From Sphingobacteriaceae bacterium (GTDB lineage: Bacteria; Bacteroidota; Bacteroidia; Sphingobacteriales; Sphingobacteriaceae), in the NCBI GenBank assembly GCA_014380615.1, contig JACMJM010000046.1, positions 1-47,726 of the forward strand: a stretch of 47,726 nucleotides of DNA. Reading direction: 5' to 3'. Position numbers and translations under genes: made by a program. Below are positions 17,985 to 20,735 of this stretch, in pieces (the stretch's first letter is position 1; each line of letters opens with the position of its first letter). The notes beneath the pieces were generated by a model. It had not been told where the DNA came from. It was given only the letters and a program-made list of their open reading frames with translations, and ran no database searches.

Positions 17985-20735
17985 TTATTGCTTTATTATA
18001 TTCATTTTACGCTTACTTTCACGTATTTCAAACACTACAGATTCCTGCGCCTTTTGGGTTAAATCAATGCGGTGCAAGTCCTGAAGAACACGAAAATCCA
18101 CGTTAAAAACATTGGTGTTTATCTTCACATTATACGTATCAGCCGGGAGGTTAAGAAAAAAAGCCCCTTCATCGTCCGTTAAGGTAGAGAAAGATTCTCC
18201 CTTTGAGCTTATAGCCGTAATTCTGATATTAGATGGGTCAAAACGCAGCTTGCTGAACGGATCTTTTACCACGTTTAACTGCCCGGATAAGAATTTACTT
18301 TCACAAAAAGGAATAAACCAGTCGAGGCTTTTATCAAAGTTCAGCACCTGCTTTAAGCCATTTGCGGGCACCCATCCTTTTGAATTCACACGGCTCAGAT
18401 CTAACTGATATTTACCTTTACTGATGTTTTTATAAACTGCCTCGCCAAGCACATTCGTTCTAAAATACTGGCTTCTGATTTGAATATTAGCATCAGGAAG
18501 GGGCTCATCCGCAGAATCAAATTTTCCGTCATTATTGTGGTCTTTGAAAAGCACCACCTTCATGATATGGTATTTCTGCAATCCGGGCAAGGGCACATTG
18601 AAATTTTTCCTGAGACTTATATTCATCGAATTTAAACGACTATCGCGGTTTAAATTATGATTATTGTAAAATCTGAGCGACAGGCCACGCTTATTAAGAT
18701 TAACGTTGAGGTCTATTCTGGCGATATAGGTTTCATAACGGTTAGCGATATCTCTGGCATAGTTTAATTCTGCCCGGGCATTTACCTGTGATTTGAAAAA
18801 GTCGCATTCGGCATACGGGGCGAACTGGAAACGGCTGATTTTTGAACCGTCGGTTTCAAACGCCCTCAGTTCCGCATAGTAAAACGGGCCCTGATCCAAT
18901 CTAAAACTAAGGCCCGCGTTTTTGTTTTGAAGAGTGCCGTATGCGTTAAGGCTGTACACCGCTTTACTATTTAAGTTCTCAACCATGCGGCTTTTGGCGA
19001 GATTTGCCGACAACATAAAATACAACGATCTGGAAAACGCCAGACCCGTATTTACATTTATTTTATGTGATTTGAAGGGTATTTTACTGCTACTGTCTTG
19101 TAACTGATTTACGATGCTGGCCGTCAAAACCACATTGTTTTGTCCCTTATTAAATCCCGAGCGCAAGCCATATTCGCTTGAACGGCCTCCGAACATATAG
19201 AGCAACCTGTCGGTCTCAAAGTAACCGGCTGTACGGCTATTATAATCGCCTACCGCTCCTGCGAAGTAATTTTTTTTAAATAGAATACGTACTTCATTGG
19301 TTGATCTGGCTACTCCGCGTTCCATTCCCGGAAAGTTCTTGCTGCTGAAATTATTCGCCGAACGAATTATAACTCTTCTGGAATTAAGATCATACCGAAC
19401 TCCTAAGCTGTGCCCGTTGGTGTTTACCCTCGATGAAAGTAATTCTGCAGATTCAAGGCCAAGCCCGGCACCAATTATCAGGCTGTTTGATTTACCGATA
19501 TTCCAATCGTATTCTGTGAGGTTAATATAACTGTTAATTCGCCGCGCAACATCTAAATTTAACACAGTTTCGTTTAAAATTTTATTTTTTCCAGTTTGCA
19601 GCTGCTGCTCAAAACAGAACTGATTAGCATTCCCTAACCGACTTTTTACGCCTACCGCATTAAAGCTATAGCCATTATTTGCTTTATAAGACACACGGGC
19701 ACCCAAACCGTCGAACAGGAAACTGTTAAATTCAATCTGATCGCCTACCGACAGATCTAATTTTTTTGTATGATAAGTAATGTTGGCGTAACGTGTTGAG
19801 GCCGTATTATCAATATAGTAATCATTAGAACGAAAATTGAACGACAGCGAACGTTCTTTGTCCAGTTTAAGGTCTCCCGCACTGTTAATGTAATACAGCT
19901 GCTCTTGTTTTGATGCGAGATTTTGAGATACAAACTCTACGAAAAGCGGAACCCGATACCATCGGGAGGGATTTTCTAAAAAAACTGTATTGTTACTATA
20001 CACCCTTTGAGTGAGATACTGACGGTCTTTATTCTTATTTATGATCTCGATAGCAATCCCTTGAGGTTTAAATTCCGATAAATGCCTGAGGGAAGTTATA
20101 ATTCCTACCTGAACAACCGTATCAGAGCCTGCGCCCAGCTTTACATATACTTCCCTGGGTTGGGTCAACTCTAAACCTGTATTGAAACGTACCGTTAGAT
20201 CTTCCGCAACGTTCCCTGTATTAGATAAAATAATTCGGAAATTGGTTTCTTTATTTAGCCTGTCGAGTTTAAGTTCGGGGGTCATTAAAACCGCCTTCCA
20301 TTTAGAATTGGGCCTCAATCCCGCAAAAAAAGTACGGGTATTTTTAGTTGAGATTCCTTCTTTTTTTACCAACAGGTGAATAGGATAAAATTTATCACTG
20401 GATGCGTCGGACGAAGCCGTGATGCGGATAGGGAGTTCTATGGTTTCATTAGGAGACAGTTGGAATAGCTTTCGGTTATCAAAAAGCGATTGCCAGTTTT
20501 CAGGAATGCTTAATTCCAGGCCAAATACCTGCTTAACCGACGAAGAGTTAGTAACACTCGCACGATTAAAGCTAAAAGAATTTCCATTTTGAAAAATTGT
20601 GTCTTTTAAAAAAACAATGTTGATATCACCATTTTGTGGTGTCTGAGCTCTGGTTTGCAGAGGTAATAAGAAAAAACAAAACTTGCAGTAAAGAATTGCG
20701 GCAAGCCCTAAACGATATGTTTTTGCTTTCACCAA
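17985..20735 (-). CDS. Large secreted outer-membrane beta-barrel-like protein with flanking Ig-like/CarbopepD_reg-like domains; candidate usher-like component of the adjacent pilin-like cluster
   Basis: The 916-aa product has an N-terminal signal, two beta-sandwich-like N-terminal segments, a ~500-aa Y/G/N/S/R-rich central region with alternating amphipathic strands typical of an OM beta-barrel, and two C-terminal beta-sandwich-like segments (KFDSADEPLPDANIQIRSQYFRTNVLGEAVYKNISKGKYQL; TDDEGAFFLNLPADTYNVKIN). No named family is recognised. The usher role is an inference from size, architecture and neighbourhood. Confidence 0.35.
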   Translation of the reverse strand: MVKAKTYRLGLAAILYCKFCFFLLPLQTRAQTPQNGDINIVFLKDTIFQNGNSFSFNRASVTNSSSVKQVFGLELSIPENWQSLFDNRKLFQLSPNETIELPIRITASSDASSDKFYPIHLLVKKEGISTKNTRTFFAGLRPNSKWKAVLMTPELKLDRLNKETNFRIILSNTGNVAEDLTVRFNTGLELTQPREVYVKLGAGSDTVVQVGIITSLRHLSEFKPQGIAIEIINKNKDRQYLTQRVYSNNTVFLENPSRWYRVPLFVEFVSQNLASKQEQLYYINSAGDLKLDKERSLSFNFRSNDYYIDNTASTRYANITYHTKKLDLSVGDQIEFNSFLFDGLGARVSYKANNGYSFNAVGVKSRLGNANQFCFEQQLQTGKNKILNETVLNLDVARRINSYINLTEYDWNIGKSNSLIIGAGLGLESAELLSSRVNTNGHSLGVRYDLNSRRVIIRSANNFSSKNFPGMERGVARSTNEVRILFKKNYFAGAVGDYNSRTAGYFETDRLLYMFGGRSSEYGLRSGFNKGQNNVVLTASIVNQLQDSSSKIPFKSHKINVNTGLAFSRSLYFMLSANLAKSRMVENLNSKAVYSLNAYGTLQNKNAGLSFRLDQGPFYYAELRAFETDGSKISRFQFAPYAECDFFKSQVNARAELNYARDIANRYETYIARIDLNVNLNKRGLSLRFYNNHNLNRDSRLNSMNISLRKNFNVPLPGLQKYHIMKVVLFKDHNNDGKFDSADEPLPDANIQIRSQYFRTNVLGEAVYKNISKGKYQLDLSRVNSKGWVPANGLKQVLNFDKSLDWFIPFCESKFLSGQLNVVKDPFSKLRFDPSNIRITAISSKGESFSTLTDDEGAFFLNLPADTYNVKINTNVFNVDFRVLQDLHRIDLTQKAQESVVFEIRESKRKMNIIKQ

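Follow-up and report, generated by a model that had tools for sequence, protein, structure and literature searches.

A predicted outer-membrane barrel protein of Bacteroidota, encoded with pilin-like subunits and a chaperone candidate, as a probable usher analogue

A 47,726-nucleotide contig of a Sphingobacteriaceae bacterium (JACMJM010000046.1, assembly GCA_014380615.1; this whole stretch is hereafter called the window) codes on its minus strand for a 916-aa protein that is the last product of a module of small secreted proteins. We consider it probable that this protein is the outer-membrane assembly or secretion platform, i.e., the functional usher, of a chaperone-usher-type pilus system that is found mainly in Bacteroidota. 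Computational analysis shows its domain architecture and topology, its resemblance to the ushers FimD and PapC and that of a neighboring gene product to pilus chaperones, the linkage of the barrel and subunit genes, and a sequence relationship between these subunits and the TLP-1 fibrils. With somewhat less assurance, we also favor a broader proposal, namely, that a hitherto unrecognized Bacteroidota-wide pathway, comprising a plugless usher, a WxLIP/PapD-like chaperone, and new pilins, is the biogenesis machinery of TLP-1 and reveals the phylum from which it comes, with the chaperone linking the WxL/WxLIP systems to the donor-strand pili of Gram-negative bacteria. The barrel gene and the parts of its product are as follows.

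17985..20735, minus strand: 916-aa usher-like assembly barrel, a predicted outer-membrane protein (whole open reading frame including the stop codon; AlphaFold2 model, Foldseek, and homologue family)
20643..20735, minus strand: predicted signal peptide, aa 1-31, ending in TRAQ (helix 2-22 in the model; cleavage site placed by prediction)
20313..20624, minus strand: N-terminal beta-sandwich domain 1, aa ~38-141, probably periplasmic (DSSP of the model; weak NPCBM_assoc/FixG_C match)
19995..20300, minus strand: N-terminal beta-sandwich domain 2, aa ~146-247, probably periplasmic (from the model; invariant N172 and G174)
18576..19961, minus strand: predicted 26-strand transmembrane beta-barrel, aa 259-720, without a plug-sized insertion
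18300..18566, minus strand: C-terminal beta-sandwich domain 1, aa ~724-812, SdrD-B/prealbumin-like, with a conserved KDxNNDG motif, probably periplasmic
18018..18296, minus strand: C-terminal beta-sandwich domain 2, aa ~814-906, CarboxypepD_reg/transthyretin-like, probably periplasmic

The open reading frame (ORF) comprises 916 codons on the minus strand, running from a TTG start at 20735 to a stop at 17985, and its product is 100% identical to an NCBI entry for a 915-aa hypothetical protein from a Sphingobacteriaceae metagenome-assembled genome (MAG). Profile searches revealed a large family of such barrel proteins, with 2064 representatives at 50% clustering and E ≤ 1e-3, and 507 at E ≤ 1e-30, most of which are about 900-930 aa in length; the A30-Q31 pair that ends the predicted signal peptide is near-invariant across this family. 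Structure prediction with AlphaFold2, using an alignment of 21 sequences and strands assigned by DSSP, gave a model (mean pLDDT 78, pTM 0.45) with a predicted N-terminal pair of beta-sandwich domains, 26 long antiparallel strands, and a C-terminal beta-sandwich pair. A preliminary description of the window, drawn from the DNA sequence alone, had proposed an outer-membrane protein with a barrel set between Ig-like regions, and all three of these parts are present in the model. The predicted barrel includes a conserved loop, NFPGMERG (aa 467-474), and a short helix (aa 620-629), and its longest inter-strand segment is 18 residues.

Analysis of the flanking domains and of the central region provides further support for this arrangement. 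Pfam searches recovered weak matches to NPCBM_assoc/FixG_C at residues 60-138, SdrD_B at 729-782, and CarboxypepD_reg at 836-874, which bears out the CarbopepD_reg/SdrD-B-like character that had been attributed to the C-terminal segments. When 46 diverse family members were scanned, SdrD_B was matched in 40 of them, CarboxypepD_reg in 38, and FixG_C in 25. The central region had likewise been described as rich in Y, G, N, S, and R and in amphipathic strands; these residues indeed account for 41.8% of it, versus 31% and 28% of the two flanks, and the hydrophobicity alternation in the 26 predicted strands reaches 2.44, above all 1000 shuffles (1.43 +/- 0.21, maximum 2.36). Composition and strand alternation thus back the barrel model independently at the level of sequence.

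As the predicted number of strands is even, both termini are expected to lie on one side of the membrane, and the longer relatives of the protein, in which an OmpA or SPOR peptidoglycan-binding domain is appended after C-terminal domain 2, indicate that this side is the periplasm. The predicted periplasmic turns span 2-5 residues and the predicted outer loops 2-18 residues. Insertions of at least 6 residues within the family, counted with two unrelated large ORFs left out, are confined to the predicted outer loops L4, L9, L10, and L13 and never occur in the turns. Given the even strand count, the OmpA and SPOR fusions, and the restriction of insertions to outer loops, the protein is best described as a predicted outer-membrane barrel with four periplasmic beta-sandwich domains.

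A Foldseek search of the PDB with this model retrieved FimD or PapC ushers as all nine of its best matches (E 1.5e-14 to 1e-10), in alignments of about 760-920 columns that extend over nearly the full length of the chain; the runners-up were LptD (E 4e-7 to 1e-5) and TonB-dependent receptors (2e-6). The score used by Foldseek favors such co-linear local similarity along the whole chain. The model contains a predicted barrel, and no clear match to a non-usher family emerged. Besides providing its best full-length structural matches in the PDB, the ushers FimD, PapC, and CsuD resemble the protein in size (916 aa versus 878 aa for FimD) and in the order of their parts, with one or more periplasmic beta-sandwich domains, a large barrel, and two further periplasmic beta-sandwich domains, so that N-terminal domains and a C-terminal pair are predicted to flank the pore in both. 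They also share an operonic setting, in that genes for a two-domain Ig-like, PapD-like chaperone candidate and for several paralogous subunits with an N-terminal donor strand, of the type that undergoes donor-strand exchange, adjoin the barrel gene. The protein had been proposed to be an usher analogue or a novel outer-membrane protein; the leading position of FimD and PapC in the structural search speaks for the former, and the strongest support, which decides for the usher reading, comes from the gene context, i.e., the chaperone candidate, the paralogous subunits, and their family-wide linkage to the barrel.

In the window, this context consists of four small secreted paralogous ORFs that precede the barrel gene in the same orientation, with the barrel gene closing the module, and of a divergently transcribed gene for the chaperone candidate.

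21042..21536, minus strand: subunit paralogue, 164 aa, secreted (subunit family; TLP-1-like profile, E 5e-7)
21814..22140, minus strand: short subunit-family member, 108 aa (jackhmmer, E 2e-15)
22294..22797, minus strand: subunit paralogue, 167 aa, secreted (TLP-1-like profile, E 1.7e-5, aa 27-98, signal peptide excluded)
22801..23298, minus strand: divergent subunit-family member, 165 aa (jackhmmer, E 2e-30; Cys near both ends of the mature protein)
23490..24311, plus strand: periplasmic chaperone candidate, 273 aa, divergently transcribed (two Ig-like domains, aa 28-165 and 175-272)

Iterative searches among the ORFs of related loci unify all four small ORFs in a single family, with the 165-aa and 108-aa ORFs joining it via the iterative search only, in a small ORF set. 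The 164-aa and 167-aa subunits share 35% identity, and an N-terminal stretch of the latter, TVSITIPTVLDLQL, can be aligned to the donor-strand-containing part of TLP-1. Pfam searches with the subunits retrieved nothing, including Fimbrial, SCPU, DUF4402, and WxL. Short subunit members of 105-131 aa are found in seven other distinct loci (L001, L004, L005, L008, L011, L014, and L019), and the 108-aa ORF of the window is probably a minor subunit, acting as an adaptor or terminator. The 165-aa ORF, whose counterpart in L011 retains both cysteines, is probably a tip or minor subunit.

The subunit operon further contains a 47-nt AU-rich near-perfect palindrome at 21557-21603, about 20 nt upstream of the 164-aa gene, with 21-nt arms and a 5-nt loop. 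As RNA, it folds with a z score of -5.1 versus shuffles; it is followed by no U-run and hence does not qualify as a canonical terminator. Possible roles are those of an operator or of a hairpin that stabilizes or directs processing of the transcript and thereby sets subunit stoichiometry. The sequence of the palindrome is not conserved in the other 53 loci, and promoter and terminator scans of the module found nothing above chance.

Comparison of the window with 25 distinct related barrel-bearing loci, 24 of which include upstream sequence, revealed that the linkage of subunits and barrel is constant: in all 24, as in the window, the barrel gene is directly preceded by one to seven co-oriented subunit genes. 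The window and 15 of the 25 loci also have a chaperone-family gene, which in the window and 10 distinct related loci is divergently paired with the subunit operon. A 301-aa protein encoded upstream in L003 has no detectable membership in the chaperone family. Genes outside the module vary between loci, which indicates that the module is self-contained and that the glycoside-hydrolase (GH) genes around it in the window are incidental; a functional tie to these flanking genes was considered and rejected, as the neighborhood differs in the other module-bearing loci. The named family members come from Pedobacter, Mucilaginibacter, Daejeonella, Chitinophagaceae, Flavipsychrobacter, Bacteroidales, and unclassified Bacteroidota, along with one MAG labelled Azovibrio, and Pedobacter superstes P351 and Pedobacter caeni DSM 16990 are cultured carriers of the module. 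Thus, all named members except the Azovibrio-labelled MAG belong to Bacteroidota, whereas classical usher systems have been described mainly in Proteobacteria.

The 273-aa protein is secreted, and its model shows two predicted Ig-like domains in the arrangement seen in chaperones, with a low-confidence loop (aa 137-157) preceding the last strand of domain 1. This model superposes on the pilus chaperones CfaA, CsuC, FimC, and PapD, covering about 85-90% of the first three. Like PapD, FimC, CsuC, and CfaA, in which the F1-G1 loop and the G1 donor strand occupy this position, the 273-aa protein has a long flexible loop ahead of the last domain 1 strand. Some of its homologues have also been automatically annotated as PapD. 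It differs in being longer, with about 245 mature residues versus 186-216 in the matched PDB chains. At the sequence level, the PapD_N model of Pfam matched 2 of 28 chaperone-family members (best E 0.011), less often than did the MSP-domain and ASH/PapD-like superfamily models, and hhalign of the family versus FimC was negative. A WxLIP_PGBD domain was matched in 26 of the 28, and by sequence the 273-aa protein is closest to the Gram-positive WxLIP (PDB 9I1Y/9I25), rather than to PapD.

WxLIP, which combines DUF916 and DUF3324, is encoded in Gram-positive WxL clusters and ends in a C-terminal transmembrane helix (PMC10599100). It is predicted to insert a beta-hairpin strand into a small WxL partner (PMC10599100), which is the principle of donor-strand complementation, and the genes for both WxLIP and the 273-aa protein lie beside those for small secreted partners. 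However, WxLIP sits on Gram-positive peptidoglycan with its transmembrane helix, whereas the 273-aa protein ends straight after domain 2 and has no such helix. Further, the subunits of the window lack a Pfam WxL match, and the WxL clusters lack an outer-membrane barrel. The sequence proximity of the 273-aa protein to WxLIP and the strand insertion predicted for the latter hint at a shared origin of the WxL systems and the Bacteroidota module.

The relationship of the subunits to TLP-1 places the module in a wider context. TLP-1a and TLP-1b (PDB 9IKJ and 9IKK, respectively) are fibrils from the water of the Tsinghua Lotus Pond that were characterized by cryo-electron microscopy (Wang et al., PNAS 2024, PMC11494351). 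They polymerize by N-terminal donor-strand exchange, as shown experimentally, with exchange from n+4 to n resulting in four linked protofilaments per fibril (PMC11494351). The authors suggested that they are uncharacterized bacterial pili; they reported no organism, assembly genes, or matching sequence in their own metagenome and proteome data, and their best match in the AlphaFold database was from a Flavobacteriales bacterium (PMC11494351). When a profile of 19 subunits was searched against the PDB, it recovered 9IKK (E 1.4e-8) and 9IKJ (E 6.7e-8), in an alignment that begins at residue 5 of the mature TLP-1 chain and includes the donor strand. In the reverse direction, the TLP-1-like profile recovered the 164-aa (E 5e-7) and 167-aa (E 1.7e-5) ORFs of the window. 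The subunits of the window are thus related in sequence to TLP-1 over the N-terminal ~100 residues of the mature protein, donor strand included.

The TLP-1 sequences were derived from density. A word-indexed search of a set of 5.8 billion proteins with the aligned TLP-1b fragment gave one truncated hit, the closest relative of TLP-1b that it found, encoded at L021 82-877 on a 1.9-kb contig from Logan run ERR13385611. This gene is split by an assembly frameshift; joining the two frames yields a precursor of 265 aa, whose match to TLP-1b extends along the entire sequence (E 1.7e-67). The same locus also codes for a Cys-rich second paralogue. Used as a query, the repaired L021 sequence led to 32 metagenome loci, the products of which show 38-56% identity to the density-derived TLP-1b sequence and align with it starting at residue 24 of the precursor, where signal-peptide cleavage is predicted. 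In all six long contigs, the TLP-1-like gene (45-55% identity to the same sequence) is followed by a second paralogue and then by a barrel-family gene, all on one strand, so the metagenomic TLP-1-like genes precede a gene for a barrel from the family of the 916-aa protein. The barrels of these six contigs are 1147-1201 aa long and match across the whole family profile with E 1e-70 to 2e-87, and those of the TLP-1-type loci bear a C-terminal extension of 137-178 aa. A chaperone-family gene lies just upstream in three of the six. Neighboring genes in the TLP-1-type loci code for type IX secretion sorting domains and SprB repeats. Such sorting domains are typical of Bacteroidota, and their presence points to Bacteroidota as the producers of the TLP-1-type proteins. 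Our literature search, which most papers in subscription journals lay beyond, returned only the CryoSeek paper on TLP-1 itself (PMC11494351) and none linking TLP-1 to an usher or chaperone or describing donor-strand pili with ushers in Bacteroidota or Flavobacteria.

Two other kinds of genes were observed in the TLP-1-type loci. In L022 (3148-8145) and L047 (552-6599), the chaperone gene is immediately preceded, in the same orientation, by a gene for a giant protein of 1665-2015 aa that combines a P-domain of the proprotein-convertase type with a C-terminal sorting domain for type IX secretion; this protein, a possible co-expressed surface protein or adhesin, indicates that the producers are Bacteroidota. 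In L044 (14989-16551) and L047 (14326-15918), the barrel gene is directly followed by one for a protein of 520-530 aa, which has four peptidyl-prolyl isomerase domains of the FKBP type and may serve as a periplasmic folding helper for the system.

We infer a pathway of the chaperone-usher type, in which the chaperone caps the subunits, the complexes dock on the domains of the barrel protein, strand exchange is catalyzed, and the chain passes through the pore. The products of the four small upstream ORFs would be exported by Sec, and their incomplete Ig-like fold would be capped in the periplasm by the 273-aa chaperone via donor-strand complementation. The chaperone-subunit complexes would dock onto the beta-sandwich domains that the barrel protein is predicted to have in the periplasm. 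Each incoming subunit would then insert its N-terminal donor strand in place of that of the chaperone, by donor-strand exchange, and the growing chain would thread the ~26-strand pore to the cell surface.

Several observations weigh against this reading. The Pfam and NCBIfam scans of the 916-aa protein retrieved no family for the barrel; the Pfam models for the usher (PF00577), PapC_N, and PapC_C matched none of the 46 diverse family members; hhalign of the barrel-family profiles versus FimD returned a probability of <1%; and phmmer and two family profiles run against all PDB sequences recovered no usher. The TM-scores to ushers are low, at 0.24-0.38, though such values are to be expected if domain orientations and strand number differ, and the pTM of 0.45 leaves the domain packing in the model uncertain. 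In ushers, the barrel has 24 strands and carries a plug domain between strands 6 and 7, whereas the barrel predicted here has 26 strands and no inserted plug, which leaves its gating unexplained. With respect to TLP-1, a one-chain usher does not obviously explain four donor-strand-linked chains; the TLP-1 protomer has 236 aa with large surface loops, as opposed to about 140 aa in the mature subunits of the window, and the similarity between them is confined to approximately the first 100 residues and a weak C-terminal strand. Moreover, a chaperone-family gene was not found in L015, L017, and L024, where at least 7.8 kb of upstream sequence and the fetched downstream flank were searched. Finally, the fiber assembly route proposed for this locus is a computational one, read from genes and models.

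These points bear on how the protein should be named. The preliminary description had left a choice between a very divergent usher and an unrelated assembly barrel. The analogy with ushers stands, but membership in the usher family does not, since the family shows no detectable sequence similarity to ushers and its predicted barrel is not of the 24-strand, plugged form. It also departs from ushers in that its two N-terminal Ig-like domains are of the FixG_C/NEW3 type, its C-terminal domains are of the transthyretin/SdrD-B type, and a part of the family bears fused OmpA or SPOR domains. We therefore do not file it with the usher family; "usher analogue" is defensible wording, whereas "divergent member of the usher family" is not.

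The most serious alternative, which we nonetheless regard as unlikely, is that the barrel does no more than anchor or passively export the small proteins, much like the curli channel, with the subunits polymerizing by themselves outside the cell and the 273-aa protein being a WxLIP-like accessory factor, at the surface or bound to the cell wall, instead of a chaperone. Polymerization would then proceed without usher-type catalysis, as in TasA fibers and archaeal cannulae, and chaperone-free donor-strand polymerization has been documented for the latter (PMC12518558). The three loci in which no chaperone-family gene was found, the absence of a plug and of any usher sequence signature, and the greater sequence proximity of the 273-aa protein to Gram-positive WxLIP than to PapD would all fit such a channel. 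Against it, the order in which the four predicted periplasmic beta-sandwich domains are placed around the pore is that of ushers, and full-length alignments to FimD and PapC came first in the structural search. The 273-aa protein, in turn, lacks the C-terminal transmembrane helix that defines WxLIP, superposes on the greater part of CfaA, CsuC, and FimC, and is encoded in a divergent pair with the subunit operon in the window and 10 other loci.

Two further alternatives treat the barrel as unconnected with pili, and we see very little chance of either. A nutrient-uptake or porin-type barrel, TonB-dependent-like or other, could belong with the surrounding polysaccharide-utilization genes, given that GH2, GH5-like, GH28, and GH26 genes flank the module in the window. 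However, this neighborhood is not conserved while the subunit genes are constant, and the Plug and TonB_dep_Rec models of Pfam matched neither the 916-aa protein nor any of the 46 diverse members; no TonB box was found either, in agreement with the preliminary description, which had recognized no plug or TonB motif. TonB-dependent transporters have a 22-strand barrel that holds an N-terminal Plug domain and a TonB box. A TonB-dependent receptor was specifically considered and rejected, as there are no plug and no TonB signatures and the structural match to such receptors covers the barrel only. The barrel might instead be of the LptD or MtrB kind, inserting or housing a lipid, lipoprotein, cytochrome, or exopolysaccharide rather than a pilus. 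The LptD and MtrB barrels have 26 strands, equal to the count predicted here, and LptD is among the Foldseek runners-up; yet its best E value of 4e-7 trails that of FimD (1.5e-14) by at least 6 orders of magnitude, no LptD/OstA N-terminal jelly-roll model is among the Pfam families listed for the 46 members, and no conserved LptE, cytochrome, or polysaccharide-synthesis partner genes lie nearby. For this improbable reading as for that of nutrient uptake, the defining domains and partners are missing, and the partners that are conserved are pilin-like genes.

The glycoside-hydrolase genes on the two sides of the module (10531-17694 and 24481-26010) code for a GH26 protein, a GalB-like beta-galactosidase of GH2, a GH5-like 859-aa protein, and a GH28 protein that is a rhamnogalacturonidase of the BT4146 type. 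Farther along, a 2886-aa protein is encoded on the minus strand at 28630-37290; it has two GH94 supersandwich regions, a GH94 catalytic domain, and a glucoamylase-like domain, an architecture that, judged from its sequence, is that of a cyclic beta-1,2-glucan synthase.

In textbooks, chaperone-usher pili are organelles of Proteobacteria, and Bacteroidota are known for type V pili, which are assembled without an usher. A large family that lacks annotation but has the components expected of a chaperone-usher system would thus add a new class of pilus to Bacteroidota, which are dominant in soil, freshwater, and gut habitats. For TLP-1, an orphan fiber with a solved structure, the module also offers candidates for both the assembly machine and the phylum of origin, and the linkage of barrel and subunits points to a specific three-component gene module for it. 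The combination of a plugless 26-strand usher with a fibril of four donor-strand-linked chains would be a new variation on the known ways in which assembly is gated and coordinated, and the pilus system is open to testing in cultured Pedobacter strains.

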